Assembly (NCBI RefSeq): GCF_047555085.1
Contig: NZ_CP180230.1
Location: 1 to 32,000, forward strand
Length of the DNA: 32,000 nt
From: Candidatus Saccharimonadota bacterium
GTDB taxonomy: Archaea; Nanohalarchaeota; Nanosalinia; Nanosalinales; Nanosalinaceae
Direction of reading: 5' to 3'
The notes beneath the pieces were generated by a model. The model was not told the DNA's origin and did no database searches. It was given only the letters and a program-made list of their open reading frames with translations. The first letter of the stretch is position 1, and every line of letters begins with the position of its first letter. Both the position numbers and the translations under genes were made by a program. Positions 9,405-28,554 of the stretch are shown here, piece after piece.

Positions 9405-9421
9405 TTTCTTTTTTGATTTTT
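9405..9421 (+). terminator. Oligo-T tract, candidate archaeal terminator after the CBS gene
   Basis: TTTCTTTTTTGATTTTT lies 20 nt downstream of the stop at 9385. Confidence 0.4.
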
Positions 9422-9480
9422 AATTTCTCCTGTATTCATGATAGATAGTTTTTTACAGAACTTTTGACAAGTCCATATAC

Positions 9481-10552: not shown

Positions 10553-10558
10553 TGATTT

Positions 10559-11299: not shown

Positions 11300-11339
11300 A
11301 GGCCACCGTTTTAACTTTCGCCCTACAGTTACAGTACCA

Positions 11340-11417
11340 GGCTGCCCTCAAGTCAGCAGGCATGAATGAGGCCCTTCACCGGTAGCCTCTATGATTGCTC
11401 TGTGTTAAAGGGCAGCC
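11340..11417. ncRNA. Candidate structured RNA or regulatory hairpin (unclassified)
   Basis: A perfect 9-bp closing stem GGCTGCCCT (11340-11348) / AGGGCAGCC (11409-11417) encloses inner helices AGCAG/TTGCT and GAGGC/GCCTC. It sits in a 142-nt ORF-free gap. No family was recognised. Confidence 0.15.
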
Positions 11418-11441
11418 AAATACTACAGAGGCCATCTACAG

Positions 11442-11690
11442 ATGACAGAGATCTACGTAAAAGTCAGGCCTGATTCAGAAGAAATCAGTGTAGACACGTC
11501 TTCGGCGATAGTGCAGATCGACTTGACTGAGCCTGCTGAGAACGGCAGGGCGAACAGTCAACTCTTGCAGCTTATCCATGAAAGGACCGGTGAAGAGGCC
11601 GCTATAGTTTCAGGCCACAGATCCAGAAGGAAGAAGATCAAGTTCCAGATCAAAGAGGAAAGTTTCAGACAAAAGCTTCAAGGTGAATAA
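11442..11690 (+). CDS. DUF167 (YggU-like) family protein
   Basis: 82 aa. The pattern VKVRPDS...VQIDLTEPAENGRANSQLLQLI...AIVSGHRSRRKKIKF matches the conserved core of DUF167/UPF0235 proteins. Confidence 0.75.
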   Translation: MTEIYVKVRPDSEEISVDTSSAIVQIDLTEPAENGRANSQLLQLIHERTGEEAAIVSGHRSRRKKIKFQIKEESFRQKLQGE

Positions 11691-11696
11691 ATAAGA

Positions 11697-14940: not shown

Positions 14941-15825
14941 ATGGCCTTTCTGTGCATAGATATAGGAGGAACAAATACGATAGTAGGAGTAGGAAACGGA
15001 GATTTTGAATCTGTAGCAAAGTACAGCACCGGCGAATTCGTCGAAAATGTCCGTGAAATGATAGATGAGGCCTTAAAGCCGTCACACATCCAGCAGGAAG
15101 ACATAGAACAGGTGGCTGTCGCAGCAGCAGGCCCTATCGACAGGGAGAAAATGGTTTTCTATCCTCCAAACGTTTCAGACAAGCAGGGCCTCGAAAAAAT
15201 CAATCTGGAAAAAGCACTGGCAGGCCTGGGCGAAATAACGATAATAAACGACTGTACATCAGCGGTACTTGGAGAGTACCACTATGGAGGGCATAAAACA
15301 GATAATCTTGTCTATGTAACTATTTCATCTGGCATAGGGGCAGGAGCGATCATTCAGGGACAGTTAATTGAAGGAAAAGACGGAAATTTTGCAGAAGTAG
15401 GGCATATGGAGATAAGCACAGAACTGGAATGCGGATGCGGAGGCCAGGGGCACTGGGAGGCCTATGCTTCAGGTGAAAATCTTCCAAAGATGGCAGATCA
15501 GCTTTTTGACCTGAAATACGATAACGCAGTCGAAATATTCGAACAGTACAACAGAGGAGACAGCCAGGCCCAGAAAGTCATCTCACAGATGCAGGAAGCC
15601 AATATACAGGGATTATCAAACGTTGCAACGCTCTACGATCCCGATAAAATAGTTCTGGGCGGAGCAGTAGCACTGAACCATCCCGAAACAGTAGTAGAGC
15701 CTCTTGAAGAAAGAGTTGAGGAAAGATCTGTTAACTCAACTCCTGAAGTAGATCTCTGCAGTCTCGGAGAAAAATCCGTTATACACGGCCTCAGAGCCGT
15801 ATGTAACGGAAAACACAGTAACTGA
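14941..15825 (+). CDS. ROK-family sugar kinase (glucokinase-like)
   Basis: 294 aa. It has the ATP-binding start CIDIGGTNT and the ROK zinc/signature region GHMEISTELECGCGGQGHWEAYASG. Confidence 0.85.
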   Translation: MAFLCIDIGGTNTIVGVGNGDFESVAKYSTGEFVENVREMIDEALKPSHIQQEDIEQVAVAAAGPIDREKMVFYPPNVSDKQGLEKINLEKALAGLGEITIINDCTSAVLGEYHYGGHKTDNLVYVTISSGIGAGAIIQGQLIEGKDGNFAEVGHMEISTELECGCGGQGHWEAYASGENLPKMADQLFDLKYDNAVEIFEQYNRGDSQAQKVISQMQEANIQGLSNVATLYDPDKIVLGGAVALNHPETVVEPLEERVEERSVNSTPEVDLCSLGEKSVIHGLRAVCNGKHSN

Positions 15826-15864
15826 AGTAAAAAAGTTGAGAGGCCTTTCTCGAGGCCTGAAAAT

Positions 15865-16317
15865 TTATTCTTTGACGTCTGCTACATCGCCCAGTGTGGC
15901 GCTTCTGTCGTCTCCGGAGTCCTGATCGACGTCGGATACTTCGGGATTGACATACAGATCGATGCCGAATTTCTTTCCGATCTTTGAGGCCAGAGATTTT
16001 TCTGGCTTCAGATCCTGGCTCTCGATTTTCTTGATCACGGACTCTTTTTCGTTCAGGCTGTCAGCGACTTCGCTGATTGAAAGTTTCTCTTTTTCACGGG
16101 CCTGCTTGATCTTTTCTCCGTAGTTGGAGTCAAGTACTTTTGTCTTCCGGCTGCTTGAACTGGTGCTTCGGCTTTTCTTCTTTTTACGCTTCTTGGAGGT
16201 TGTTTCAACTGTTTCCCCCATTTCAGCACATGAGTCACAGACGTTTAGTGTAGCTCCTTCGATTTTAGCTTTTTTGAGAGAATCCTGTTCTCTACCACAA
16301 AGTTCACAAGATGACAT
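15865..16317 (-). CDS. Archaeal MBF1-type transcription factor (zinc ribbon plus HTH)
   Basis: 150 aa. It has an N-terminal CELCG..(17)..CDSC zinc ribbon, a KKRKKKKSR basic linker and a C-terminal XRE-type HTH (IKQAREKEKLSISEVADSLNEKESVIKKIE). Confidence 0.85.
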   Translation of the reverse strand: MSSCELCGREQDSLKKAKIEGATLNVCDSCAEMGETVETTSKKRKKKKSRSTSSSSRKTKVLDSNYGEKIKQAREKEKLSISEVADSLNEKESVIKKIESQDLKPEKSLASKIGKKFGIDLYVNPEVSDVDQDSGDDRSATLGDVADVKE

Positions 16318-16443
16318 TTTCAGTTCACAAATCCTTTTTTGATTAAATTTCTGCTGTAGATCAAAATTTTTCTGTAGAAGACAATTGTACTCGAAACATT
16401 AAAATACCTCGCAAAACAGGCCTCTGAAAAATCCGCCAAGAAG

Positions 16444-16449
16444 TTTAAA
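16444..16449 (+). promoter_or_regulatory. TATA-box-like element for LamG gene 16475
   Basis: TTTAAA, within AAGTTTAAACAC, lies about 26 nt upstream of the ATG. Confidence 0.35.
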
Positions 16450-16474
16450 CACAGGCCTCCAAAACAGAAACAGG

Positions 16475-17743
16475 ATGACAGGACTGATTGGCTGGTGGCC
16501 TCTACACGAAAACTCAGGATCAACAGCTCATGATCTTTCAGGAAACGATAATCATGGATCTTCTAACGGTGTTAATCCTGGTGTAGCAGGGAAGGGAGGC
16601 CTTACAGGCTACAGCTTCGACGGAGCTGGCGATTATGTTGATCTTAATCGTTTCGGCACGACTTTTACTTCCCTCTCTATATCTGCCTGGGTGAACGTAT
16701 CCGATAAGTCTTCTACAGGACAGATTCTGAGAGATTATTCAGATAATAGCTTTACTTTACGTACCAACAGCGGTGAAATCGAGTTCGGTATGAATTCCGA
16801 CAGTTCGGCTTTCACATCAGTAACACACGCCATCAGCAATGATACGTGGTATCATGTCGTGGCCACATGGGATGGAAGCCAGATAGAACTGTATATTAAC
16901 GGAGAGAAGAAAGATACTGCTTCATGGAGTGATGCACATGCATGGGATACAAACAGAAATCCATCCATAGGCTACAAGCCCTACAACTCGTCCCAGTACT
17001 ACAACGGCAAGGCCTCCAGCATCAGACTGTATGATCGTGCCTTAACTCCTTCTGAGATCCAGGAACTGTATGAATGGGGATCCGGTGATTATGTGAGGCC
17101 TCCGGCTGAAAGTGATTCTGGAGTTTCTCGCTGGAGTTTTGACGGCGATGTAACTGATTCATGGGGATCAAGGGATGGAACAGATAATACAAGTGCAGGA
17201 TTCTCTTCAGATTCTGTGAGAGGCCAGTCAAAGTCATTTGACGGAAGCGATGACTTTGTGGATATAGGTAGTCTGGGTGTCAGCAGAGGCGATCCTGTAA
17301 CTGTCAATCTATGGATAAAGAAGAAGGGAGATATAACAACTTCAGAAGATCAGACTATTTTTGCATCTGAAAAAAGCAATCCCTCCAATGGAAGACTGTA
17401 TATAGAGGCCGACAACGATAGATACCAGTTCTACGTCAATAGCGGGATAATAAGATCAACCAGTTCTTTCAATTATTCCTGGAATATGCACACCTTTGTC
17501 TGCGATGGCAGCACAACCAGTTATTACATCAATAACGTATTTCAGGAAAGCATAGCTGATGATTTCTCTATACCTGATCTTGTTCTAGGCCAGGATAGTG
17601 ACACGAGATTTTTCGAAGGAAAAGTCGATGATCTAAGGATATACAGCCGAAATATTACGCGTCAAGAGATATCTGAGCTCTACAGGTACGGCACCAGAGG
17701 CCGCGATATGAGAAAATTTACAGTGAATAGCAGAGGCCTCTGA
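16475..17743 (+). CDS. Tandem LamG / concanavalin-A-like lectin domain protein (2 domains)
   Basis: 422 aa. There are two modules, each starting W(P/S)(L/F)...D.(S/W)G...G and FDG..D(Y/F)V and ending with IRLYDRALTPSEIQELY or LRIYSRNITRQEISELY, which are hallmarks of Laminin_G_3 domains. It is a paralog of 26096-27442. Confidence 0.85.
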   Translation: MTGLIGWWPLHENSGSTAHDLSGNDNHGSSNGVNPGVAGKGGLTGYSFDGAGDYVDLNRFGTTFTSLSISAWVNVSDKSSTGQILRDYSDNSFTLRTNSGEIEFGMNSDSSAFTSVTHAISNDTWYHVVATWDGSQIELYINGEKKDTASWSDAHAWDTNRNPSIGYKPYNSSQYYNGKASSIRLYDRALTPSEIQELYEWGSGDYVRPPAESDSGVSRWSFDGDVTDSWGSRDGTDNTSAGFSSDSVRGQSKSFDGSDDFVDIGSLGVSRGDPVTVNLWIKKKGDITTSEDQTIFASEKSNPSNGRLYIEADNDRYQFYVNSGIIRSTSSFNYSWNMHTFVCDGSTTSYYINNVFQESIADDFSIPDLVLGQDSDTRFFEGKVDDLRIYSRNITRQEISELYRYGTRGRDMRKFTVNSRGL

Positions 17744-17917
17744 ATTTTTCTGTAAAAAACTGTAAAATTTTCAGGCCGTGTAGAGGCCTTGAACACCGTT
17801 TTTACCACGGGTGTTGAACAAAACCTGTTTTAGAGGCCTGAATGGTACTGTTTTCTGCCTTTAACCCCCGTACCTATAAAAAAGAGGACTGACAATACCT
17901 TATTGGAGGATTTCACA

Positions 17918-18085
17918 ATGGTAGATGTACTTAAGAAGTCTGGCGTCCGTGACGCAGCTGATGGAGTCAACGTTGGCTCCGATTTCTACGATGCTCTAGA
18001 TGACGAGGTAAAGGATCTTGTCGAGAGAGCTGTAGAAAGAGCTCAGGAAAACGGACGAAAGACTGTAAAGGCAAGAGATGTATAA
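17918..18085 (+). CDS. Small histone-fold-like protein (DUF1931-like)
   Basis: 55 aa from the ATG at 17918; the ORF track starts at an upstream TTG (17903). GGAGG lies 8 nt upstream of the ATG. The stretch VGSDFYDALDDEVKDLVERAVERAQENGRKTVKARDV resembles DUF1931/histone-fold small archaeal proteins. Confidence 0.65.
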   Translation: MVDVLKKSGVRDAADGVNVGSDFYDALDDEVKDLVERAVERAQENGRKTVKARDV

Positions 18086-18116
18086 TCTCAGGTCTTTAAA
18101 CAGTCAAAACATACCT

Positions 18117-18135
18117 TAATTTTTTCTTTTTCTCC
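18117..18135 (+). terminator. Oligo-T tract after the histone-fold gene
   Basis: TAATTTTTTCTTTTTCTCC lies in the 57-nt gap between convergent genes. Confidence 0.35.
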
Positions 18136-18142
18136 TTCATTT

Positions 18143-19480
18143 TCACTCAAGATCTGCTATAAACTCTCTTACTTCAGAAATATTTTCCTCGCTTATATTT
18201 TCTCCTTCCAGAGTCACACGTATCAATTCTTCTGATCCGCTGGGCCTTAGAAGAGCCGTGAAGTCCTCGAAATCCAGTTTCAATGCGTTAAATTTTTCGT
18301 GGATTATCAGGCCTCTGGCATTGGCTTTCTCTCTGATTCTAAGCATTAAATCGTTCTTCTCTTCAACACTGGAGTTGAATTTTTCTGTGTCATACTTCTC
18401 CAGATCATGGATAATCTCCGAGAAGCTTTCATCTTTCTCTGATATCAGGCCTGATACAAGAAGTGCGAAAAGACTCCCTGAATCATACGGTACAAATTCC
18501 GAATCCATTAAATGGCCGTTGGGCTGTCCTCCAAAAGTTATATTTTCTTCAAGAGATTTGAGTGCTGTAAATACTGCTCCTACTGGAGCATAACTTATTT
18601 CTCCATCGTTGCTCTCTACAGTGTCTTTTACTGTTCGGCCTGCGTTGACTGAGGCGACTATCTTCTCGGAGACCTCCAGATACTTTTCTGACAGGAGGGC
18701 GAGCGATGTGTCGCCGTCCACAAAGTTTCCGTTCTCGTCTACAAACATGACACGATCAGCATCACCATCAAATATAACGCCGATATCAGCTTCTTCTTCC
18801 AGTACTTTTTCCTGCAACATTTCTGAAGATTTTTCTGAAGGCTCAGGAGAGTGAGCAGAGAAATCAGGATCAAAACTGTCGTTAATTACTTTAACTTCAG
18901 CTCCAAGCTCTCTCAGTGCGTCAGGTGCCGCCAGGCATCCAACGCTGTTGGAGCAGTCGACTATTACTTCAAGGCCTGAAAGATCTTTATCGAAAAGTTC
19001 CCTGTAACGTGAAACAAGACCTTCAATGTACTCTCCCAGAAGATTTTCCTCGCTGAGTTCTCCGTAGCTTTCGGCGGAGGCCTTTTCCCTCATGTAGATC
19101 TTTTTGATCTCCGCCATCTCGGCGTTACTGAGTATCCTTCCTTCAGAATTTATCGGCTTGAAGCCGCCGTAACTTGGAGGCATGTGAGATGCTGTTATTT
19201 GTACTGCGGCATCAAAATCTTTCCTCGCAAGATAAGCTGTCATATCTGTAGTTGCAAGGCCTGTAGCAGTGACATCACATCCCTGACTTAACAGGCCTGA
19301 TATCATGGCATTGTAGAAAGCAGGCGAGCTTTCTCTGATGTCTCTGCCGACTAGAATATTGCCTGAATCCCAGTAAAAGCCTAAAGCCTTTCCCAGCTGG
19401 AAAACTAGCTCTGAATCGATCTCTTCCGGAGCTTCTCCTCTTATATCGTATCTCTGAAAGACTTCAGGCCTTGCTCTCAT
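18143..19480 (-). CDS. Phosphoglucomutase/phosphomannomutase family phosphohexomutase
   Basis: 445 aa. It has the active-site serine loop TASHMPPSYGGFK, the metal loop GVIFDGDADR and a C-terminal RPSGSE phosphate-binding loop. Confidence 0.9.
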   Translation of the reverse strand: MRARPEVFQRYDIRGEAPEEIDSELVFQLGKALGFYWDSGNILVGRDIRESSPAFYNAMISGLLSQGCDVTATGLATTDMTAYLARKDFDAAVQITASHMPPSYGGFKPINSEGRILSNAEMAEIKKIYMREKASAESYGELSEENLLGEYIEGLVSRYRELFDKDLSGLEVIVDCSNSVGCLAAPDALRELGAEVKVINDSFDPDFSAHSPEPSEKSSEMLQEKVLEEEADIGVIFDGDADRVMFVDENGNFVDGDTSLALLSEKYLEVSEKIVASVNAGRTVKDTVESNDGEISYAPVGAVFTALKSLEENITFGGQPNGHLMDSEFVPYDSGSLFALLVSGLISEKDESFSEIIHDLEKYDTEKFNSSVEEKNDLMLRIREKANARGLIIHEKFNALKLDFEDFTALLRPSGSEELIRVTLEGENISEENISEVREFIADLE

Positions 19481-19490
19481 CTTTCTAGCT

Positions 19491-20699
19491 CTACTCTCTG
19501 CTTGAAAGCTCTCTGATCAGGTTTTTCTGGGCCTTGATGTAGCCATTCGGAAGATAATCTTCACGTCTATCCATCATTCTTTCAGCATGTGTGGTTGCTT
19601 TCTCCGGGATGTAGTCGTCTTCGCTGCCAGGATTCTGCCATGTGAAAGGATTCACGTTCGAAGTAACTTTTCCGGCGATCTTGGCTACAGGCCCGATCTG
19701 TTTGCCTGTGTAAATCCCGGTCTGTATATCAGTCTTTGTGTGATCTGCTATGCTGGCTCCTACTTTCAATCCAGCATCTGTGCTGCCTTCCACAGGGTGT
19801 TCGACTGTTACATCGCCGTAAGTATTCTTCAGATCGGAGTTTGTTGTCCCTGCTCCGAAGTTCACCCAGCTACCTACTACTGCATGTCCCAGGAATCCAT
19901 AGTGATACTTGTTCGTAAAGCTGCTCATTACAGCATCTTCGAACTCTCCGCCTGCTCTGGCGACGTCTCCGATATGAGTATTCTCGTGTATAACGGCGTT
20001 TTCGCCTGCCCCGACTTTTGTATCTATTCCAATATATACAGGGCCTTCAATACGGGAGTTAGGCCAGACGCGTGTGCCTGAGCCGATGTATACAGGGCCT
20101 TCAGAGGTATCGATAGTTGCATTGGCATCTATCTCTGCATCTTCTCCAATGTACAGGCCTCCATCTCCGATAATTTCTGCCTCCGGATTTATCTCGCCTT
20201 TAACCTCTTCTCCCGGGAAGCTATCTCTGATCAAATCTCCGTTGTGCTCGACTATATCCCAGGGATACTCAAGTATAACAGGCTCCTCATCGATTTCAGT
20301 CCTTTCGAACTCTTCCACAAACTCCTCGATATCTTCAAAATTGGGATATCTGTCTGTTACGCCAGCGATGAAAGTATCTTCGTAGTAGAGGCCTTCACCA
20401 CTCTCTAGATCTTCAACACCGCTCCTGATAACCTCATTTGGTACGACAGTGGAGTTATAGAGCAGAAATTCGCTTTCAGGTATAGAATTAACTTCTCTTT
20501 CCAGATCGTACAGCTCGGTGTTTCTCTCGGTGATTTCCTCAAGATACTCTGGTACCAGAACGCTTAGCTCGCTGGAGTTGAGGCCTCTTTCGATATGCTC
20601 AAATAATGTTGATCCTCCGACTTCAATATCGGTACTGCTTCTTGTATAAGTCAGAGGCTTCATCGAATCGTGCCCAAGATCGGCAATAACGGTTCTCAT
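19491..20699 (-). CDS. Sugar nucleotidyltransferase-like protein with left-handed beta-helix (non-canonical GlmU-like)
   Basis: 402 aa. The N-terminus MKPLTYTRSSTDIEVGGSTLFEHIE lacks the GxGTR signature. The C-terminal half is made of hexapeptide repeats (IGEDAEIDANATI, IGSGTRVWPNSRI, IGIDTKVGAGENAVI). Confidence 0.7.
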   Translation of the reverse strand: MRTVIADLGHDSMKPLTYTRSSTDIEVGGSTLFEHIERGLNSSELSVLVPEYLEEITERNTELYDLEREVNSIPESEFLLYNSTVVPNEVIRSGVEDLESGEGLYYEDTFIAGVTDRYPNFEDIEEFVEEFERTEIDEEPVILEYPWDIVEHNGDLIRDSFPGEEVKGEINPEAEIIGDGGLYIGEDAEIDANATIDTSEGPVYIGSGTRVWPNSRIEGPVYIGIDTKVGAGENAVIHENTHIGDVARAGGEFEDAVMSSFTNKYHYGFLGHAVVGSWVNFGAGTTNSDLKNTYGDVTVEHPVEGSTDAGLKVGASIADHTKTDIQTGIYTGKQIGPVAKIAGKVTSNVNPFTWQNPGSEDDYIPEKATTHAERMMDRREDYLPNGYIKAQKNLIRELSSRE

Positions 20700-20711
20700 A
20701 CGTCTTTCACT

Positions 20712-20969
20712 TCAGAATTCTTCTTTACGTCTTTCAGATTCCATGAAGAACTGTTCGGCCTCTTCAAGAGCCTCACGGAGCTGTTCAACAGTCTCCTGAT
20801 TCTCAATAGTTATACGCCCCAGATCATTGTCGTTGATCTCTATAACAATCTTCCCGTCATCTTCAGCTTTTGTAGTATACTTCAGGATCTCCTCAGGTCC
20901 TGTCTTGAATTCATGAAGTTTCTCCGACATACAAGAAAAATTCCCGCCTAGAGTTAAATTATCTTCCAC
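20712..20969 (-). CDS. Small hypothetical protein within the sugar operon
   Basis: 85-aa ORF with a GTG start abutting the upstream stop. An alternative ATG at 20930 would give 73 aa. No recognisable family. Confidence 0.45.
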   Translation of the reverse strand: MEDNLTLGGNFSCMSEKLHEFKTGPEEILKYTTKAEDDGKIVIEINDNDLGRITIENQETVEQLREALEEAEQFFMESERRKEEF

Positions 20970-21461
20970 TCAGGCCTCTCCGAACTCATTCTTTACAGCT
21001 TCGACCACGTAATCAAGACTTCTTTCCGATCGATCGAAGACAATACCAGGAACAGATACTCTTTCTATCTCCTCCTCTCTATCATCCACGAGAAAATCTA
21101 TGTCTATCTCATCCTTGTCTTCGTCTTCCACGATAAAGTATCCATCAACATGCTCAAGCGCTCCTGACTCCGCGATTTTTCTCTCCTGAAAATACGGATC
21201 ACCACGACTAACAATCATCAACTGGAAATCATCACGTAGCTCCTCCAAGGCCTCTATGTCATCGTACAGAAATCTATCGGCATGTTCCAGGGCCTGAAAG
21301 ATCTTTTTCACGCCTACTTCAAGATTATCAGCATGTAAATCCGGATCATAATTCCCTTCCTTCGGGTACTCCTCCAGAAAACCAGGTATCTCGCTGTCAA
21401 GAAAATCTTTGAACCGATCTGTCTCAAAGAGAACACGATCAAAATCCAGGCCTATAATCAT
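20970..21461 (-). CDS. HAD-like hydrolase (putative sugar-phosphate phosphatase)
   Basis: 163 aa. Motif I is GLDFDRVLF (DxDxV), motif II IVSRG, and an acidic motif IV FLVDDREEE is present. Its start codon directly abuts the stop of the upstream nucleotidyltransferase. Confidence 0.7.
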   Translation of the reverse strand: MIIGLDFDRVLFETDRFKDFLDSEIPGFLEEYPKEGNYDPDLHADNLEVGVKKIFQALEHADRFLYDDIEALEELRDDFQLMIVSRGDPYFQERKIAESGALEHVDGYFIVEDEDKDEIDIDFLVDDREEEIERVSVPGIVFDRSERSLDYVVEAVKNEFGEA

Positions 21462-22397
21462 CTACTCTTCACCTATTATCTCTGTCTCAGAGTTTCTGGA
21501 GGTCTTTTCAACTTTCCTGCCCTCTCTCAGAATAATGTTTTCCACATCAGCCTCTGCTTCACTGTTATTCATAATCACTGAATCCTTTACATCTCCCTGA
21601 ACTTTTGCGCCTTCCAGTACAGCAGAATCAGAGATCTTCGAGCCTTCTCCGATCTTTGCGTTATCTCCGACAAAGACATCTCCCTCAAGCTGTACGTCAT
21701 CGGCTACATCTGCAGTTTCAGCGACTTCAATACCATCAGTGACCTCCTGAGAGGCCTCGACAAGCTGGAAAGGATAGCTGCACGGCAGCCATTTATCCGC
21801 CTCAACGAACTCGACTTCGTGATCGATCAGGTACTCATTCACAGCATCAGTTATCTCGTACTCTCCTCGCTCCGATTTCTCCACGTTTTCCAGCAGATTG
21901 AAAAATTCTGGCTGCACCACGTAGAAACCGATGTTCACAAGATTTGAAGGCGGATTCTCCGGCTTCTCCACAAGGCCTGAAATTTTCCCATCTTCAAGCT
22001 CGAAGACACCGAATTTCTCTGGTTCATCAGCTCTCGATGCCAGTACCGCAGAGTCGTATCTCAAGGCATCTACAGCTTTCTCGCCGTAGATATCATCCCC
22101 GTTCATGACGACAGTTTTTCCATCGATGAACTCTTTCGCCTGTAAAGCTGCGTGTGCTGTTCCCAGGGCCTGTTCCTGTTCAACTATTTTTATATCCGAT
22201 CTATCGGAGAATTTTTTCTCTAACTCGTCGATCATGTATCCGCCGACGACTATTATCTCGTCGACTTCGTCCTTGATCAACTCGATGTTGTGTTCGATTA
22301 TAGTTTTCCCTGCGACAGGTAAAAGAGGCTTCGGGGTATCATCGGTAAGAGGCCTCATACGCGTGCCTTTTCCGGCGGCAAGAATCACTGCTTTCAT
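21462..22397 (-). CDS. Sugar-1-phosphate nucleotidyltransferase (canonical signature) with short beta-helix tail
   Basis: 311 aa. MKAVILAAGKGTRMRPLTDDTPKPLLPV is a textbook pyrophosphorylase G-x-G-T-R motif. A GTAHAL block and C-terminal hexapeptide-like repeats are also present. Confidence 0.9.
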   Translation of the reverse strand: MKAVILAAGKGTRMRPLTDDTPKPLLPVAGKTIIEHNIELIKDEVDEIIVVGGYMIDELEKKFSDRSDIKIVEQEQALGTAHAALQAKEFIDGKTVVMNGDDIYGEKAVDALRYDSAVLASRADEPEKFGVFELEDGKISGLVEKPENPPSNLVNIGFYVVQPEFFNLLENVEKSERGEYEITDAVNEYLIDHEVEFVEADKWLPCSYPFQLVEASQEVTDGIEVAETADVADDVQLEGDVFVGDNAKIGEGSKISDSAVLEGAKVQGDVKDSVIMNNSEAEADVENIILREGRKVEKTSRNSETEIIGEE

Positions 22398-22457
22398 AGT
22401 ACAGTTTTTTCAGGCGTTCAGTTTTATGTTTAATTTCTATCTCAGGCCTCTAAGTTT

Positions 22458-23561
22458 TTACTTGCTGATCTCGGAAAGATCTGTTCTTGCATCAGGCACG
22501 AACTTTACTCCACGAATCGAGTTATTCATCTCTATATAGCTGCGTGCTCCGATAAAAGACTCTCTTATCACGGATCCTGAGCGTAAATCACATTCCTCTG
22601 CAAATATACACGACTCTACAGATACACCGGAATCCATGATGCCATCCTCAAACACTATAGAATCTATAACTGAATCACAGGCCACAACATTATTCGCAGA
22701 TACTGAAGAATTTTTCACATGAGCATTTGGACCTACCCGAGCATTTTCACCTATATAGACGTCGCCCTCGAGGACTGCTCCAGGCTTCAACACTGCGCCT
22801 TCATCTATAATAGCGTTGCCGAGTACTGAGGCCTCTTCGTGGACATCAGCACCTTCACGTATTTCTACATCATTTATTTCGTACTCTCTTTTCACTTGAT
22901 CGGCCTTGAGAAGCTTTTTCGGGCCTCCGACATCGATCCAGTAATCTTCTATAAGCTCGAAAGTAGCCTCGTCCTCGTCTATAAACTCTCTGACTGCATC
23001 GGTCAAAGCTTTTTCCTCACCTTCAAGATTTTTCACAACATCCATTATTTCGGGCCTGAAAGCATAGATGCCGGTGTTAACGAGAACGTTGTCGGGATTC
23101 TCCGGCTTTTCCTCGAGTGAATTGACTTGGTCGTTTGTAATACTTAAAACGCCGAATTTCTCTGGGTTGTCCTCTCCAGCGGCCAGTACCGAGGCCTTTG
23201 AATCCGTCTGCTCAAATTTTTTCCTCAAATTTTCAAGATCTCGCTGTGAGACAGCTACATCTCCGTTGACAACGAAGAAATCTTCCTCTATGTCTCCACA
23301 GGCCTCTAGAGCTCCTGCGGTGCCGTTAAGTTCTTCCTGTACAACTACTTGCACGTCGTCGTCTTCTGCGTATTCTTCCTCGAAGTCTTCTTTCATGTGA
23401 TTCGCTACTATGAAGAATTCGTCGACGCCTATAGCTCTCAGATCCTCGACTATATGGCGTGTAAGAGGCTTTCCCATAACAGGCATGAGGCCTGTAGGCT
23501 TTGTCTCTGAGAAAGGGAACATCGAATCCTTTTTTACTGCACACGGTATAACGGCTTTCAT
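22458..23561 (-). CDS. Nucleotidyltransferase/beta-helix paralog with degenerate NTP-binding signature
   Basis: 367 aa. It has the same fold pattern as 21462-22397 (ETKPTGLMPVMGKPL, NGTAGALEA, EKPENP, hexapeptide repeats). The GxGTR loop, however, reads IPCAVKKDSMF. Confidence 0.75.
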   Translation of the reverse strand: MKAVIPCAVKKDSMFPFSETKPTGLMPVMGKPLTRHIVEDLRAIGVDEFFIVANHMKEDFEEEYAEDDDVQVVVQEELNGTAGALEACGDIEEDFFVVNGDVAVSQRDLENLRKKFEQTDSKASVLAAGEDNPEKFGVLSITNDQVNSLEEKPENPDNVLVNTGIYAFRPEIMDVVKNLEGEEKALTDAVREFIDEDEATFELIEDYWIDVGGPKKLLKADQVKREYEINDVEIREGADVHEEASVLGNAIIDEGAVLKPGAVLEGDVYIGENARVGPNAHVKNSSVSANNVVACDSVIDSIVFEDGIMDSGVSVESCIFAEECDLRSGSVIRESFIGARSYIEMNNSIRGVKFVPDARTDLSEISK

Positions 23562-24817
23562 CCTGCTATACGTTCACTTTCTTCATTTTCAAGTATCTTT
23601 CCATCACGAATCCTCAGTTTCTCAAGGCGCTCATTGCTTATTTCCAGCACCTCAGAGTAATTTTTCCCTTCAACTGCGGCATCCCGTACATCAAAAATCG
23701 CGTTCATAAACACGTCCGTCTCCTTTTCAGTAATTTCTCTTTCATGTATCCCGGCCGCTTCAAACACAGTATTTTCCAGCATCCTGTACAGTTGATCATG
23801 CATAAAATCTCTTGTGGCGATTTCTCCCCTGGAATCCAGATCATAAAGCTTTTTTTCCAGCATATCTCCGGCCAGATTCCTTGAGCCCTCCACAACAAAG
23901 AAACGGGCCTCTTCGTCTACAAAGGCCTCTCCATCGTCCTCTACATAATCTCTGTCGATGACATGTTCGCCTGTGATCTTTCTTATTCTTGAGGCCTCTT
24001 CTGCGGCTTTGTCGCTGATGCCCAGCCAGCTTGAATTTAACTCGATGGATACGTCCTCAAAGCTGAATTCTGCGTGTGTCATGCCTGTCGCTGCATCCTC
24101 GAGATCGTACGTGTAGCCGCCTTTGAGGCCTAGAAGCTTCTCTGATCCGAAATTTTTCGGAACGAAAAACTCTGCATCTACGTCTTCAATTTCAAGTCCA
24201 TAATCTCCTGTAGAGGCCTCCAGAAAGTCAAGAACGTACGCTTCGTGAATCATCTTATCCAGTATATCTCCGCCGAGTACCCCTATACGGTTTACAGGAT
24301 CTATTATTTTTTCCAGGCCCATACAGCTTTCTCTGAATACTTTAATCGAGTCTATATCTTCGTCTTTAACTATTTCAAGAGTTTTTTTGACTACGGGGCT
24401 TTCTCTCTCGATAAAATCGACTGAGAACGTAACATCTTCGTTTTCAGCCAGCTTTTTTTCTGAAATATGTTCCTCACGACTCATGGAACTCGGCTTCTCA
24501 GTCAGATGGTGGAAGCCGTGCCTCAGTGACTCGTAGATATTGTCCGGATGGATGTCCGAAGGCCCTGCATCGTAGACAAGGACGTTTTCTCCCGAGGCCT
24601 CTTCATACATTTCATCTTTGTCGGCGAATGTTTCAGTCTCGATTCTGTGCTGCCTGGCAAATTTCTCCGCGGCCTCTAATTTTTCCCGATCTGTATCACA
24701 GATGCCTCCGATCTCAACGTTAACTTCCTCCATGTGGTTCGCCATGTCAACAAATTTCTCGAATCCGTGGCGTCCGAAGTCTCCCAGCCCTATCTGATAA
24801 ATTTTTACAGTCTTCAC
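23558..24817 (-). CDS. Gfo/Idh/MocA-like NAD(P)-dependent oxidoreductase
   Basis: 419 aa with a GTG start. An N-terminal Rossmann-like stretch VKIYQIGLGDFGRHG is followed by an EKP-type motif (HLTEKP). It overlaps the downstream gene by 4 nt. Confidence 0.55.
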   Translation of the reverse strand: MKTVKIYQIGLGDFGRHGFEKFVDMANHMEEVNVEIGGICDTDREKLEAAEKFARQHRIETETFADKDEMYEEASGENVLVYDAGPSDIHPDNIYESLRHGFHHLTEKPSSMSREEHISEKKLAENEDVTFSVDFIERESPVVKKTLEIVKDEDIDSIKVFRESCMGLEKIIDPVNRIGVLGGDILDKMIHEAYVLDFLEASTGDYGLEIEDVDAEFFVPKNFGSEKLLGLKGGYTYDLEDAATGMTHAEFSFEDVSIELNSSWLGISDKAAEEASRIRKITGEHVIDRDYVEDDGEAFVDEEARFFVVEGSRNLAGDMLEKKLYDLDSRGEIATRDFMHDQLYRMLENTVFEAAGIHEREITEKETDVFMNAIFDVRDAAVEGKNYSEVLEISNERLEKLRIRDGKILENEESERIAG

Positions 24818-24842
24818 GTCTCAGAAATTTGTTCTGCTCCGG

Positions 24843-24878
24843 TTTAAAATCTCCCTTCGTCAGAGACAACAATAAAAA
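24843..24878. promoter_or_regulatory. Divergent promoter region (sugar operon on the minus strand, RHH gene on the plus strand)
   Basis: The reverse complement of GGTTTAAAAT gives ATTTTAAACC about 26 nt upstream of the GTG at 24817. AATAAAAA (24871-24878) lies about 30 nt upstream of the ATG at 24908. Confidence 0.4.
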
Positions 24879-24907
24879 GATTCTCAATTTACTATTTGTT
24901 GGTAACA

Positions 24908-25312
24908 ATGGCCGAGAAGAACAAGACGATATCTTTCAGAGTACAGGAACAACAGTTCGATGAAATGAAGGATATTGCTGAAGATCTCGATACCTCTGTC
25001 TCGAAGCTGATGAGAGATCACGTAGAAGGAATGGCGGACGATCCGCTGTACAGAGAAGTACATATGGAGTTCTACGACGATGACAGAGACTTCGAGGCCT
25101 TTGTGGATGATGAAGACTACTTCGATACCGAATGGGTAGATCAGACGGCTGTCGACTACGATAAAATGCTTGAAAAGTTCCATGAAGTCAAGTACAGGGC
25201 TGAAAGACAGGAAATGGATGAAGCCTACAGGATAATCGATGAAATGAAGGAAGAAGGATTCGAAAGAGAGGCATTCCTGCTTAACTCCATAACTGCCCAG
25301 TACAGAGAATAG
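24908..25312 (+). CDS. Ribbon-helix-helix (CopG/Arc-like) domain protein with acidic tail
   Basis: 134 aa from the ATG at 24908; the ORF track begins at TTG 24896. KTISFRVQEQQFDEMKDIAEDLDTSVSKLMRDHV fits a beta-alpha-alpha RHH. It is divergent from the sugar operon. Confidence 0.5.
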   Translation: MAEKNKTISFRVQEQQFDEMKDIAEDLDTSVSKLMRDHVEGMADDPLYREVHMEFYDDDRDFEAFVDDEDYFDTEWVDQTAVDYDKMLEKFHEVKYRAERQEMDEAYRIIDEMKEEGFEREAFLLNSITAQYRE

Positions 25313-25343
25313 ATTAAAGTATACACCTGTACAAAATTTCTTT

Positions 25344-26099
25344 ATGCCGAAAATTTCCTGGGATAATGATGATTTCCAGAAAAGTCAGGATTCTTCAGGA
25401 ACTACTACGGAAAATATTTCCGGTGGAGGCCTTGAGCAGGGATACTTTCACGGCTCTTTAACTAGGGGCCTTGTGGTGTATTATCCGCTTGATTCCGGTT
25501 CCGGTTCTACAGCTATCGATGAAGTCATGGGGAATGATGGAACTATCAATGGTGCTTCATGGGCTTCTGGTTCAAAAATAGGGGATTCCTGTCTTGATTT
25601 CAACGGCTCTAGTGATTATCTGGCGATGCCTGAAATAGCTTTAGAGGATTCTTTCACTGTTTCCCAGTGGGTAAATCTTGATCAGGATAAAGACTGGAAT
25701 AATTCTTTCGGCTCAGAGTCAATACTTTCTATGATCTCCTACGCTGATGGCAAAATACAGTGTTATATCGGCGATGGAAATAGCTGGCAGGCAGAGACAA
25801 ATACAGGTACAGGAAAAACAAATCCCGGAAACTGGCAACACTGGCTGATAACCTACGATGGATCAACACTAAGATTCTTCCTCAACGGCGTACTAGAAGA
25901 CAAAACATCCATCTCAGTAGCCCTGCCATCTACAGTTCACCACATCGGTGCAAGAAACAATCAAACCAGCGAATACTCTCTAGACGGTAGAATAGACTCC
26001 ACAAAAGTATACCGTAGGCCTCTATCAACGCCTGAAGTACAGGCCCTATATAATCTAACTAGGCCTTCAAAAGTTTCTCCAGGTGATACTGTAGTATGA
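25344..26099 (+). CDS. Single LamG / concanavalin-like domain protein
   Basis: 251 aa. It has YYPLDSGSGSTAIDEVMGNDGTINGASW...LDFNGSSDYLAMP at the start and KVYRRPLSTPEVQALY at the end. Its stop overlaps the next start (ATGA). Confidence 0.8.
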   Translation: MPKISWDNDDFQKSQDSSGTTTENISGGGLEQGYFHGSLTRGLVVYYPLDSGSGSTAIDEVMGNDGTINGASWASGSKIGDSCLDFNGSSDYLAMPEIALEDSFTVSQWVNLDQDKDWNNSFGSESILSMISYADGKIQCYIGDGNSWQAETNTGTGKTNPGNWQHWLITYDGSTLRFFLNGVLEDKTSISVALPSTVHHIGARNNQTSEYSLDGRIDSTKVYRRPLSTPEVQALYNLTRPSKVSPGDTVV

Positions 26100-27442
26100 C
26101 AGGCCTGATCGGCTGGTGGCCTCTTCACGAAAACTCTGGAAGTACTGCGTATGATCTCTCAGGAAATGGAAATCACGGGAGTTTGAGTGGCGGTGTTACG
26201 ACGGGTGTGGCCGGTAAAGGAGGCCTGACAGGATACAGTTTTGATGGGGGTAGTGGCTTCGTTAACTGGAGTGATGGAGGTCATGTCGAGAGCAAAGCGC
26301 CTCCGGTTTCGATCTCGCTTTGGGCATATTTTCCATCTGGTAGCCAAGGTCCTTACTCTCTTTTCAGCCAGCAGGATGATGGAGGGAATACTGTTCTCGT
26401 CATGTTGGGGGATAGGGCTGGCGAGGACAAGGTGAAGTTCTCGATTTACGATGATAATGATACGTGGGTAGATCTTCCAGGCGGAAATATCGAAGAAGGA
26501 TGGATGCATATTACAGCTGTCTGGAAGCCTGACCAGACAATGCAGATATTCGTGGACGGTAAGAAAAAAGGAGAGGCTTCAACTACCGCAGGAACAGTTG
26601 ATACTTCAGATCCTATCGGAGAGCAAGTCCTAGGTATTTACGATTACGGAGGATCAAATGAGGCCTATTTCAATGGCAAAATCTCTGATGTAAGAATTTA
26701 CAACCGCGTTCTCAGCTCGGTGGAAGTCCAGCAGTTGTATGAATGGGGCAACGGAGACTATGCGAGGCCTGTAGATAGTTCTGATTCTTCTGCTGTTTCT
26801 CGCTGGAGTTTTGATGGAGATACAACGGACTCATGGGGATCGAATGATGGAACTGACAATACTTCGGCAGGCTTTGTTTCTGGAGTTAGAGGCCAGGCGA
26901 AGGCCTTTGATGGAAGCGATGATTATGTGGTTTTGCAGAGTAGTTCGGGTGTGGATGGTAAAGGCGGTCATACTATCTCCTCTTGGGTTAACCTCAATTC
27001 GGTTGATGAGGAGGACATATTTGGCAAGTGGGGGAGCGACAGTAGTAACAAATCTTACCTTTTGATGGTTTATGATCCTGGTTCTGGGCCTAATGTGCGA
27101 GGGCATGTACATGATGGAGCGAATTCATACGTTGTTGATGCTGGAGACGCTGTAAAAACCAATGGGTGGTATCATGTAGCCCAAGTATGGGATGGAAAGA
27201 AGCTCTATGTGTACACGAACGGCAGGATGTCAAATAGTATCAGTGCGGATATCAGTCTCGCAAGTTCAAGTAAAGACCCTCACATAGGCCACAGAGGCTA
27301 TAATGCTTCATCTCATCTTGATGGATCAATTGATGAAATAAGATTTTACAACCGTGCGCTTTCACCTTCAGAAGTTTTTGAACTTTACAGATGGGGGACG
27401 GGAGGCCGCGATTTGAGAAAGTTTACTGTTAATTCGAGGTAG
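26096..27442 (+). CDS. Tandem LamG / concanavalin-like domain protein (2 domains), paralog of 16475-17743
   Basis: 448 aa. The first 18 aa (MTGLIGWWPLHENSGSTA) are identical to those of the 16475 protein. The interdomain linker and C-terminus (RKFTVNSR) are near-identical, while the domain cores are divergent. Confidence 0.85.
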   Translation: MTGLIGWWPLHENSGSTAYDLSGNGNHGSLSGGVTTGVAGKGGLTGYSFDGGSGFVNWSDGGHVESKAPPVSISLWAYFPSGSQGPYSLFSQQDDGGNTVLVMLGDRAGEDKVKFSIYDDNDTWVDLPGGNIEEGWMHITAVWKPDQTMQIFVDGKKKGEASTTAGTVDTSDPIGEQVLGIYDYGGSNEAYFNGKISDVRIYNRVLSSVEVQQLYEWGNGDYARPVDSSDSSAVSRWSFDGDTTDSWGSNDGTDNTSAGFVSGVRGQAKAFDGSDDYVVLQSSSGVDGKGGHTISSWVNLNSVDEEDIFGKWGSDSSNKSYLLMVYDPGSGPNVRGHVHDGANSYVVDAGDAVKTNGWYHVAQVWDGKKLYVYTNGRMSNSISADISLASSSKDPHIGHRGYNASSHLDGSIDEIRFYNRALSPSEVFELYRWGTGGRDLRKFTVNSR

Positions 27443-27509
27443 AGGCCTGTCTTTTTGTCGCACCCTATTTAAAATTTCGTCTTCAGTGTTTGTTTACGAG
27501 GTTTTCAAA

Positions 27510-28031
27510 ATGGGAGATCGACCTGCAAGCATTTACAGAGAGCAGCCTAATCAGCCTTACACGCGACAGGCTCAGAACAAAAGAGATAATTATGTCAGCG
27601 GTGCTCCGGCTCCAAGAGTAACTCAGTACGAGATGGGAGCACGAGATAAGGACTTCGAGAAAGAAGTCGTACTTATAGCTGAAGAGGACTGTTCGATCAG
27701 ATCAGAGGCTCTTGAGGCAGGACGAGTTGCAGCTAACTCTTTCCTTTCAAAGGAGTTCGATCCTGAAGAGGAGTACAAGCTGAAGATCAGACCTTACCCG
27801 CACCACATTCTACGATACCACCCTCTTGCTGGAATCGCTCAGGCAGACCGTTACTACGAAGGTATGCGTAAGCCTTTCGGACGACCGATCGGCCGAGCAG
27901 CTATCGTAGATGAAGGAGACGTTGTGTTCAAAGTCTCCGTTGGAGAAGGCGACACAGATGAGGCAAGGAAGGCTCTAGAGAGAGCTAACCACAAGATGCC
28001 TGTCACCTGCAGAGTCCGCATCCAGAAGTAA
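27510..28031 (+). CDS. rpl10e: Ribosomal protein uL16 (L10e)
   Basis: 173 aa from the ATG at 27510; the track ORF starts at GTG 27486. MGDRPASIYRE..PYTR...YVSGAP..RV and HHILRYHPLAGIAQADR are typical of L10e. GAGG lies about 9 nt upstream of the ATG. Confidence 0.9.
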   Translation: MGDRPASIYREQPNQPYTRQAQNKRDNYVSGAPAPRVTQYEMGARDKDFEKEVVLIAEEDCSIRSEALEAGRVAANSFLSKEFDPEEEYKLKIRPYPHHILRYHPLAGIAQADRYYEGMRKPFGRPIGRAAIVDEGDVVFKVSVGEGDTDEARKALERANHKMPVTCRVRIQK

Positions 28032-28102
28032 TTCTACATATTCCCTACTTTACTTTTCTACCAGGAAACTCTTCTCACATTTCCTACAGCCAAACATTTA
28101 AT

Positions 28103-28122
28103 TGTTACTATAGAATAACAAC
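28103..28122 (+). promoter_or_regulatory. Conserved palindromic promoter-proximal element, copy 1
   Basis: The sequence TGTTACTATAGAATAACAAC has inverted arms (T)TGTTA/TAACA(A). It is identical to 31214-31233 at 18 of 20 positions and lies between the TATA-like box and the ATG. Confidence 0.55.
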
Positions 28123-28124
28123 TC

Positions 28125-28499
28125 ATGAGTTTCGATGGGCCTTCTGGCAATCCACGAATCATAGATATGGATGAAGAGATGCCGGACTACGACACTATCT
28201 TGAAGGCCCAGAACACGTATGAAGAACTTCTTGAAGAACTGGAAAGATACTCTATGGCAAAGATTCAGGGCGGCGATGTACAGGAAGAGCTTGAACTTGT
28301 AAGAGACGACATAAGAGATACGAGAGCATACATCAAAGTCGAGATCGAGACTGTACAGCCTCAGGACTTTATAGTTGGAGATGATGCCGGCGAGTACGAT
28401 GAGAAGGCGGAAAGACTTTTCAGGCCTAAGGTAGATTTCCTGGAGGAACGCTTTGAATCGGCTGAAGAGTACAGAGAGCATCTTCTGGACAGGCTCTGA
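28125..28499 (+). CDS. Acidic hypothetical protein
   Basis: 124-aa ORF. A TATA-like ATTTAATT lies about 22 nt upstream, and a conserved 20-nt palindromic element directly precedes the ATG. No family recognised. Confidence 0.6.
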   Translation: MSFDGPSGNPRIIDMDEEMPDYDTILKAQNTYEELLEELERYSMAKIQGGDVQEELELVRDDIRDTRAYIKVEIETVQPQDFIVGDDAGEYDEKAERLFRPKVDFLEERFESAEEYREHLLDRL

Positions 28500-28522
28500 A
28501 TTTTCAGGGCCTGCAACCGAAG

Positions 28523-28530
28523 ATTTAATT
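28523..28530 (+). promoter_or_regulatory. TATA-box-like element for 28555 gene
   Basis: ATTTAATT lies 25 nt upstream of the ATG and is the same octamer as at 28096-28103. The spacing suggests a leaderless or near-leaderless transcript. Confidence 0.4.
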
Positions 28531-28554
28531 CACGGCTCTGAGAAATAACTGTGT

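Follow-up and report, generated by a model that had tools for sequence, protein, structure and literature searches.

The window analyzed here, a 32-kb stretch of DNA from Candidatus Nanosalina sp. VS9-1 (Nanohaloarchaeota), carries three plus-strand genes for LamG-domain proteins next to a minus-strand sugar-nucleotide operon (18143-24817). Two of these proteins, LamG1 (16475-17743, 422 amino acids (aa), P0013 among the family labels) and LamG2 (26096-27442, 448 aa, P0001), contain two LamG domains each, and the third, LamG3 (25344-26099), contains a single one. Based on a comparison with their relatives, we consider it reasonably probable that the family, a modular LamG scaffold with reassorted domains, serves host-surface recognition; the LamG genes are the variable part of this locus, the operon being its backbone. 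An earlier reading made from the sequence only had taken the organism for a small, possibly host-associated halophile, which fits the actual source, and had regarded the two larger LamG genes as the direct repeats around an exchangeable nucleotide-sugar island, which does not agree with the data presented below.

All three proteins are recognized by the Laminin_G_3 profile (PF13385) well above its cut-off of 27.6 bits (LamG1, 146.5 bits; LamG2, 148.8 bits; LamG3, 87.0 bits), with two matching stretches in each of LamG1 and LamG2. These matches and the gene coordinates confirm the two plus-strand, two-domain open reading frames (ORFs) of the sequence-only reading, and also its third, single-domain gene on the same strand, which extends from 25344 to 26099. 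Both the LamG1 and the LamG2 ORF use the earliest start codon available past the upstream stop, and no upstream extension is possible. LamG1 stands alone between a gene for an HTH regulator and a gene for a small histone-fold-like protein, whereas the stop codon of LamG3 overlaps the start of LamG2 by 4 bp. No LamG remnants were detected in the window outside these three genes.

LamG1 and LamG2 share 183 of 454 aligned residues in a BLASTP comparison (40%, E = 2e-86), and these identities are concentrated in three blocks. In a codon-aware alignment, the N-terminal framework block (residues 1-57; 16475-16645 in LamG1) has an aa identity of 0.80, and its first 18 residues, MTGLIGWWPLHENSGSTA, are the same in both proteins. 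The segment that covers the end of domain 1, the linker and the start of domain 2 (17000-17260 in LamG1; residues 190-280, 26663-26935, in LamG2) has an identity of 0.66, which corresponds to the 99th percentile among family pairs. The C-terminal 43 residues, comprising a strand, a helix and a basic tail (17615-17743 in LamG1, ending in ...ELYRYGTRGRDMRKFTVNSRGL; residues 406-448, 27311-27442, in LamG2), are identical at 0.53 and at about 0.7 over the last 25 residues. The identity of each of the two cores, by comparison, is 0.21. Identical positions thus amount to about 128 of 191 in the framework versus about 54 of 257 in the cores, a heterogeneity far above chance, and every element of the mosaic described earlier (18 identical residues, N block, linker, C-tail and divergent cores) is reproduced.

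At the nucleotide level, a repeat scan of positions 15800-28100 found only four blocks of similarity between LamG1 and LamG2, 44-87 nt long and 79-83% identical, the longest ones measuring 86-87 nt with 79-81% identity. The synonymous (dS) and non-synonymous (dN) divergence of the conserved segments is 1.57 and 0.16 for the N block, 1.79 and 0.25 for the linker, and 1.41 and 0.38 for the C block, which gives dN/dS ratios of about 0.1-0.27 with dS near saturation; dN in the cores is about 1.0. Since dS is near-saturated, the conserved blocks of LamG1 and LamG2 are old and are held by protein-level selection. Recent gene conversion between the two genes is rejected by the dS values of 1.4-1.8 in the conserved blocks, and the similarity pattern of LamG1 and LamG2 is a family-wide conservation profile, not the trace of a recent exchange.

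Database searches assigned at least eight VS9-1 proteins, encoded on a contig of 1,046,238 bp and including two with the exact sequences of LamG1 and LamG2, to this family, and 224 relatives were recognized among the candidates scored, nearly all of them from hypersaline metagenomes or nanohaloarchaeal metagenome-assembled genomes (MAGs). Close relatives were found almost exclusively in Nanohaloarchaeota, and there are hundreds in hypersaline metagenomes. A scan of GTDB with the family profile retrieved five nanohaloarchaeal MAG loci, followed only by LamG proteins of the generic kind from Patescibacteria, Micrarchaeota, cyanobacteria and Planctomycetes; VS9-1 was not among the matches. A profile search of the whole library gave 523,849 matches dominated by giant multi-LamG proteins. 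We aligned 100 two-domain members of the family, corresponding to 4,950 pairs and 200 cores. The conserved columns of this alignment are the blocks shared by LamG1 and LamG2, with the N-terminal consensus MTGLVGWWPLHE.SG.A.DLSGNGNHGTLNGGVTQGVAGKGGLTAYSFDG, the linker consensus LYEWGSGDYARP...AVSRW.FDGDA.DSWGSNDGT.NG and the C-terminal consensus IDDVRIY.RALSP.EVF.LYRWGTRGRDMRK.TVN; they include the strand-helix-tail segment at the end of LamG1. In the cores, conserved residues are limited to a skeleton of W..H, Y.NG and IG. The mean pairwise identity is 0.64 for the N block, 0.48 for the linker and 0.56 for the C block, with 0.19-0.20 for the cores. The first ~55 residues of each domain, its last strand and the following helix or tail are under purifying selection, and the central ~130 residues of each domain exist as very many unrelated types.

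Segment identities across the 4,950 pairs revealed 19 pairs with one core that is 50-100% identical, and in all 19 the other core is only 14-28% identical. When the cores were re-analyzed by BLAST at an identity of at least 50%, nine matches connected two first domains, ten connected two second domains and none connected a first with a second domain; at 45% identity the 200 cores form 180 clusters. Alignment of six recombinant pairs demonstrated a sharp switch from near-identity to unrelated sequence within the conserved linker segment, which is located at the linker and the start of domain 2 in five pairs and sets in with the final strand of domain 1 in the pair P0023/P0065. For instance, P0023 combines a first domain of the P0005 type with a second domain of the P0065 type: P0005 matches P0023 up to ...SDSGAVSRWKFDGD and diverges beyond it, and P0023 and P0065 show the reverse. 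The shared domains also match in nucleotide sequence (84.8% over 856 nt for the first domain and 92.2% over 798 nt for the second), and outside of them the P0005, P0023 and P0065 genes do not align at the nucleotide level. The family therefore reassorts whole domains in register, first with first and second with second, with crossovers in the linker. The dN/dS ratios of 0.11-0.14 in the shared domains show that each domain type, once formed, is under purifying selection, and thus the diversity is combinatorial among discrete types and does not result from continuous hypermutation. The earlier suggestion of a conserved framework with surfaces exchanged by recombination holds in this form, as whole-domain reassortment, for the family; it fails for LamG1 and LamG2 as a pair of recent recombinants, given their dS.

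The VS9-1 proteins are involved in the same reassortment. The type of the first domain of LamG1 recurs in P0020 (71% identity) with a different second domain, and the second domain of the VS9-1 paralog P0026 recurs in P0022 and P0017 (79-88%) with different first domains. The cores of the eight VS9-1 paralogs all differ from one another. Multiple paralogs, a conserved framework with a hypervariable region, and mosaic recombinants, the marks of a recombination-diversified adhesin family, are all present. Diversification by a diversity-generating retroelement (DGR) was rejected, as the Pfam-scanned ORFs of the window include no reverse transcriptase and the variation is whole-domain replacement; no template-like repeats appeared in the repeat scan of 15800-28100, beyond which they were not specifically searched.

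In one related genome, of which several samples yielded contigs (L002-L009), the gene order from PolD to Dph2 is kept and the neighboring housekeeping proteins are 59-91% identical in aa sequence. The seven proteins of the sugar-nucleotide operon are 63-76% identical, like the neighboring housekeeping genes. The positional counterparts of the LamG proteins in L002 are 37-43% identical: the LamG1 position is taken by P0037 (38%), and the LamG3 counterpart shares 43% of its residues. The LamG2 position (L002 20174-20230) holds a 19-codon remnant, MMEVELFGLDLRKLTVNSR*, which records the loss of an internal part of a two-domain LamG gene, its beginning now being joined to its C-tail; this remnant still overlaps the stop codon of the preceding LamG gene, which belongs to the class of LamG3 (class A, see below). 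A different two-domain LamG gene, P0050, is located after the L10e gene of the related genome and not before it.

Three more distant nanohaloarchaeal contigs, L010, L011 and L012 (the latter being NAR1_11, 675 kb), retain the operon as well. Each of them keeps, as far as its own coverage reaches, the block ROK - HTH - histone-fold - operon - GFO - RHH-like - L10e - 516-aa gene - Dph2. None of the three has a LamG gene at either operon boundary. The RHH-like gene is kept in two of these contigs, L010 and L011, where it adjoins L10e. As the operon persists in all three contigs and the RHH-like gene in two of them without any LamG gene at the boundaries, the operon and the RHH-like gene are ancestral neighbors, and the LamG genes are lineage-specific insertions that have been replaced and deleted. 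Thus, the sugar-nucleotide operon together with the RHH-like gene is a conserved backbone and not a mobile island, and the LamG genes are inserted, replaced and deleted at the operon boundaries of this backbone. When the content of the interval is compared among relatives, the operon is conserved throughout and the LamG genes are the variable part.

The backbone gene to the left of the LamG1 insertion site encodes the HTH regulator (15865-16317, minus strand; HVO_2718-like/HTH_3 according to Pfam), which is 77% identical in L002 and 69% identical in L010. The backbone gene to the right (17903-18085, plus strand) encodes the histone-fold-like protein of 60 aa, with weak matches to DUF1931 and CBFD_NFYB_HMF. 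This protein is 100%, 95% and 91% identical in L002, L010 and L012, respectively, and the region upstream of its gene, which contains the TATA-like sequence CTATAAAAAAG, shows identities of 86% in L002 (~125 nt) and 90% in L010 (~52 nt). The conservation of this gene and of about 85 nt upstream of it is far above that of the neighbors. In L002, an extra gene for a beta-class carbonic anhydrase (9236-9916), absent from the window, is located between the HTH regulator gene and P0037. LamG1 is surrounded by an 18-nt imperfect direct repeat (16365-16382, AATTTTTCTGTAGAAGAC; 17743-17760, AATTTTTCTGTAAAAAAC), whose second copy begins with the final base of the stop codon and forms part of a hairpin with a T-run. 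The empty LamG1 site in L010 shows no clear target duplication, and the repeat could be an insertion scar, a T-rich terminator or a chance match. A motif GTTTAAACA(C/G)AGGCCT was observed ~20-30 nt upstream of the LamG1 start (about 16443-16458) and again upstream of P0037 (L002, about 9968-9983), despite the 38% identity of the two proteins; it is probably a promoter of the TATA box/B recognition element (BRE) type that gives a leaderless transcript.

The gene for ribosomal protein L10e/L16 (27486-28031, plus strand; 91% aa identity in L002) is the backbone gene to the right of the LamG3-LamG2 insertion. The boundary after it (28032-28554) is a second hot spot of gene turnover. In the window, this gap of 524 bp between L10e and the gene for a 516-aa protein contains an ORF for an acidic protein of 124 aa (28125-28499, plus strand), which is strain-specific, predicted to be helical, without a family match and unrelated to LamG. 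At the same boundary there is a 448-aa LamG gene in L004 and just 86 bp in L011.

According to their termini, the LamG proteins constitute three classes. Class A, to which LamG3 belongs, is characterized by the N-terminus MPK.l.WDgdDF..QDSSGT...G.LqQGY.hGSLTRGLVAYYP and contains one or two domains, and its C-terminus is not defined; in LamG3, this class-specific part is a 40-aa N-terminal extension (MPKISWDNDDFQKSQDSSGT...GLEQGY...). Class B, with LamG1 and LamG2, has the N-terminus MTGLIGWWPL..., two domains and the C-terminus ...RKFTVNSR, the basic C-tail RGRDMRKFTVNSR being its C-terminal element. Class C (N-terminus MVLIGYWPLNE..., one domain, C-terminus ...LYNVSK.G.QV) is absent from the window. 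In our sample, no core type at 45% identity or more is common to A, B and C proteins. The A-then-B gene order of LamG3-LamG2 is found again in the contigs L173, L174, L175 and L001 and in the viral contig L094. In L173, L174 and L175, the A-B(-C) genes form tightly coupled operons with 4-bp overlaps at unrelated chromosomal sites, and A-B pairs outside the window adjoin unrelated genes such as those for TauE, a P-type ATPase and McrB. The VS9-1 paralogs P0052, P0073 and P0099 are A/B hybrids. Contig L001 (ERZ1758345 QH_Go_Scaff1403539, 1-12728; GC content 53%) contains a dense same-strand array in which A, B and C LamG genes occur twice, interleaved with genes for fn3 proteins of 262, 339 and >1,438 aa and for a Cys/His-rich protein of 119 aa; this array may be either a locus for cell adhesion or a fiber module of a virus or provirus. 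In L175 (3137-4570), a two-domain gene of class A that adjoins the gene for a McrB-like GTPase appears split into ORFs of 241 and 201 aa, which may reflect a frameshift or a pseudogene.

The viral counterpart of the A-B pair is encoded by IMGVR_UViG_3300003314_000006 (L094/L176), a hafunavirus-like contig of 28.9 kb with a GC content of 45.8%, which is unusually low for a halovirus and would fit a Haloquadratum or a nanohaloarchaeal host. Its baseplate genes are followed by a tail-fiber gene, two small genes, an A-class LamG gene (462 aa) and a B-like multi-domain LamG gene, the N block of which is identical to that of the chromosomal P0065 at 43 of 50 positions. Homologs of the two small genes (90 aa and 131 aa) occur within the LamG/fn3 array of L001. 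The baseplate J protein is 56% identical to those of HSTV-2, HRTV-11 and HCTV-6, and its named relatives are all from haloarchaea or haloviruses, none being nanohaloarchaeal. Host range in Hafunaviridae is determined by the hypervariable region that follows the baseplate genes (PMC8651126). In IMG/VR, the A-class N-terminal motif matched this contig only, and no close LamG relative was found in the genomes of isolated phages and haloviruses.

An AlphaFold2 model of LamG2 (mean predicted local distance difference test (pLDDT) score 89.6, predicted template modeling (pTM) score 0.88) consists of two all-beta jelly rolls with a helix after each domain, the C-terminal region containing helices 424-435 and 441-447. 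Foldseek searches matched it to laminin LG4-5, neurexin LNS and botulinum toxin Hc domains (E = 1e-11 to 1e-14), and further to tetanus toxin Hc, the accessory domain of a GH43 protein and the lectin domain of a trans-sialidase; every one of these is a binding module. Many of the structural matches in BFVD are LamG structural proteins of tailed phages, and the best PHROG matches are annotated as 'virion structural protein' or belong to baseplate or tail-fiber families. No catalytic-domain family matched LamG1 or LamG2 in the Pfam and NCBIfam profiles, and the predicted fold supports the view that the LamG proteins are non-enzymatic lectin-type modules. For LamG3, the model was built from a 4-sequence alignment and, with a pLDDT of 45, is unusable for the N-terminal extension. 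In the 100 aligned family members, the sequence opens with MTGL(I/V)GWWPL or a comparable motif, at the first beta strand. The maximum hydropathy over 19 residues (Kyte-Doolittle) is 0.37-0.73 (LamG1, 0.61; LamG2, 0.37). The LamG proteins contain 12-13.5% aspartate plus glutamate, versus about 16-30% in the cytoplasmic proteins of the window, and they are richer in S/T/N/G and in N-x-S/T sequons than their cytoplasmic neighbors. This composition suggests an extracellular location and is not decisive.

Thus, we propose that the variable cores would form surfaces for binding ligands, either glycans or surface proteins, and that the conserved termini and the linker would act as elements of folding and assembly. 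Proteins of class A (the LamG3 type), class B (the LamG1/LamG2 type) and, at other loci, class C might then build up a fiber-like or adhesin-like complex. The repertoire as a whole would serve the recognition of haloarchaeal host surfaces, in line with the published proposal that strain-specific LamG proteins mediate the attachment of nanohaloarchaea to their hosts (PMC7443923, PMC10266531). A parallel would be the module that sets the host range in tailed haloviruses. The same A-then-B pair is found in one such virus, and the same module may act in the host-range region of a halovirus.

Several observations weigh against this proposal. Judged by ORF starts and hydropathy, no member of the family has a signal peptide, a twin-arginine translocation (Tat) motif or a transmembrane segment, unlike the published nanohaloarchaeal LamG adhesin candidates, which are described as secreted or membrane-bound. 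The framework is largely a generic LamG_3 signature, present in ~5 x 10^5 proteins, and its conservation may in part reflect a constraint of the fold alone. The putative A-B-C complex is deduced from gene order and from the conserved termini specific to each class. The viral link is a single IMG/VR contig, and a close relative of that virus has no LamG gene in the available part of its contig, where other genes follow baseplate J.

As the export signal is absent, a virus-related or particle-associated role stays the chief rival. The LamG genes would then be virus-derived tail-fiber cassettes and not cellular adhesins, for example remnants or morons of tailed viruses, spare fibers for a resident provirus or a tail-like particle, or decoys against viruses. 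Virion proteins likewise lack signal peptides, the PHROG and BFVD matches point to phage structural proteins, and the A-B pair with its two accessory genes, which have homologs in L001, occupies the tail-fiber region of a hafunavirus-like contig. However, the LamG genes are dispersed, alone or as pairs, among housekeeping operons, and no other viral gene was found in the 32-kb window, L002, L173 or L175. Their ORFs are intact, and purifying selection acts on the framework as well as on each domain type; the presence of at least eight copies in a genome of 1.05 Mb suggests that they are retained for a cellular function. In addition, the relatives of the viral baseplate J are all haloarchaeal, and a single viral contig has close relatives of the family. 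We therefore regard such a virus-related role of these genes as rather unlikely, while giving it more weight than the other alternatives. A role of the LamG proteins as cytoplasmic carbohydrate-binding or carbohydrate-processing proteins tied to the neighboring UDP-sugar metabolism would also explain the missing export signal and the adjacency to the sugar-nucleotide operon in this genome. Yet this adjacency is not conserved, no catalytic domain is matched, and every match by fold is to a binding module. The proteins also have a lower acidic content and more sequons than cytoplasmic ones, and the extreme diversity of types with their reassortment is typical of proteins that face a variable external partner and not of metabolic proteins, which makes such a role improbable.

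The model of the sequence-only reading, in which the LamG direct repeats delimit a swappable nucleotide-sugar island that acts as a lectin-glycan cassette, is largely refuted and retains very little probability. It correctly described two LamG genes in direct orientation, ~8.35 kb apart, around the sugar-nucleotide operon, and short homologous blocks between them do exist. However, blocks of at most 87 nt with 79-83% identity and near-saturated synonymous divergence are poor substrates for a deletion or swap of ~8 kb. The GC content is flat, and no integrase, transposase or tRNA gene was found in the window; the operon is syntenic at background divergence in the related genome, more distant relatives keep it without flanking LamG genes, and other A-B pairs are located next to TauE, P-type ATPase and McrB genes. 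The link between lectin and glycan genes is thus positional only and lineage-specific. A modular, reassorting LamG family with a likely role in host-surface recognition remains the explanation that we prefer.

Several known systems resemble this family in part. The LamG/PKD surface proteins of Ca. Nanohalobium constans LC1Nh, Ca. Nanohalococcus occultus SVXNc and Ca. Nanohalovita BNXNv come from the same phylum and have the ConA-like/LamG fold, and like the family described here they are organism-specific, highly variable and proposed to recognize host glycans or glycoproteins. They are, however, described as secreted or membrane-bound, and many are very large proteins containing as many as five LamG domains, whereas the present proteins are compact (~420-480 aa), consist of exactly two domains with fixed motifs at both termini, occur in A-B(-C) operons and have neither signal peptides nor transmembrane segments; domain reassortment is not described for the published proteins (PMC7443923, PMC10266531). 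The adhesin region of Hafunaviridae tail fibers (PMC8651126) shares with our family the lack of signal peptides, the combination of a conserved portion for attachment and a hypervariable one for binding, and a recombination-driven diversity, and in one contig the LamG genes are directly downstream of the baseplate J and tail-fiber genes. The characterized hafunavirus adhesin, though, is a glycine-rich gp38-like protein and not LamG, and the LamG genes of VS9-1 are chromosomal, located among housekeeping genes and multi-copy. The MAT family of Bdellovibrio bacteriovorus (PMC10769870), another small cell living on others, comprises multigene phage-fiber-like proteins with a conserved base and diverse exchangeable tips for varied prey surfaces. 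This likeness is one of logic and not of homology: MAT proteins are bacterial trimeric fibers of coiled-coil or beta-helical structure, the surface exposure and binding of which were demonstrated experimentally, and the proteins considered here are archaeal tandem LamG proteins known from their genes.

The tip adhesin TafC of haloarchaeal Tat fimbriae (NF052521; PMC11821415) uses a LamG domain as the adhesive tip of a filament, and its family is the sole NCBIfam match of LamG1 and LamG2. These matches cover the LamG domain only and reach 41 and 80 bits versus a cut-off of 410; TafC additionally carries a Tat signal and, at its N-terminus, a pilin-like donor-strand domain, both of which are missing from LamG1 and LamG2. 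With scores below the cut-off, no N-terminal extension and no twin-arginine motif, they do not belong to the TafC family. The best PDB matches (E = 1e-12 to 1e-14) are the laminin alpha LG4-5 and neurexin LG/LNS pairs, which likewise consist of two consecutive jelly rolls and are modules for glycan or protein binding; these belong to the eukaryotic extracellular matrix and the synapse, share 11-14% sequence identity with LamG2 and differ in inter-domain geometry (TM-score 0.24-0.40). Finally, the DGR-diversified C-type-lectin targets of DPANN archaea, mentioned for Ca. Nanohalobium (PMC7443923), are also putative host-interaction proteins of symbionts that are subject to diversification. DGRs operate by adenine-directed point mutagenesis, whereas the present family shows whole-domain replacement among deeply diverged discrete types.

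The minus-strand operon, the existence of which agrees with the sequence-only reading, contains genes for a GlmM-like PGM/PMM (18143-19480), an alternative GlmU that scores above the TIGR03991 cut-off (19491-20699), an ORF of 84 aa (20712-20969), a HAD-like protein (20970-21461), two sugar-1-phosphate nucleotidylyltransferases similar to Arch_glmU/RmlA-long (21462-22397 and 22458-23561), and a GFO/IDH/MocA oxidoreductase (23558-24817). The divergent plus-strand gene, which starts at 24896 (TTG) or 24908 (ATG) and ends at 25312, was confirmed as well; it encodes a small acidic protein, and its assignment to RHH proteins is weakly supported by sub-threshold matches of residues 3-37 (Arc-like PHROG, E = 0.002; NikA-like Pfam, E = 0.014).

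The window is chromosomal, as it encodes Orc1/Cdc6, both PolD subunits, a Toprim (DnaG-like) protein, a ROK kinase, L10e and diphthamide synthase. Its GC content ranges from 0.41 to 0.51, and that of the interval from LamG1 to LamG2 from 0.41 to 0.48, without an anomaly. A tRNA scan and an Rfam scan of the window were both empty, and thus there is no tRNA-type integration site; profile scans of the window ORFs detected no integrase or transposase, and no viral hallmark gene across the 32 kb. Upstream of orc1/cdc6 (333-1541), positions 24-210 contain an inverted pair, CCACCCCCTGATTTCACGTGGAA and TTCCACTCGAAATAAGGGGGTGG, around an AT-rich stretch (74-129), with a third similar copy at 183-210, followed by the genes for Orc1/Cdc6, PolD DP1, a HAD protein and PolD DP2 in that order. 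This site looks like origin recognition box (ORB) elements flanking a DNA-unwinding element, i.e., a replication origin. The backbone with the LamG genes at its operon boundaries lies 15-27 kb away from it.

LamG proteins as candidate adhesins of DPANN archaea and recombining families of adhesins or tail fibers are already known; new are the definition of a compact family that lacks signal peptides, the clean evidence that its domains are reassorted, and the A-B(-C) operon with its single viral counterpart. As a tentative extension, for which the chances are modest at best, Nanohaloarchaeota and at least one haloarchaeal-type myovirus might use the same A-B(-C) LamG hardware for receptor binding: the conserved termini would plug into a scaffold, the domains would be reassorted in register, the module would have moved between virus and symbiont, and the gene copies would constitute a combinatorial host-range repertoire exported by an unrecognized route. 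The results correct the tempting interpretation of the sugar-nucleotide operon as a mobile glyco-island. LamG proteins have repeatedly been named as candidates for host attachment in DPANN archaea without mechanistic detail, and the family described here, with its fixed scaffold, hundreds of domain types, rapid turnover at the boundaries of a conserved backbone and a counterpart gene pair in the host-range region of a halovirus, supplies concrete targets for the study of host specificity in cultivated pairs of nanohaloarchaea and haloarchaea, namely the pairing of individual domains with S-layer glycans and the route by which proteins without signal peptides may reach the cell surface.

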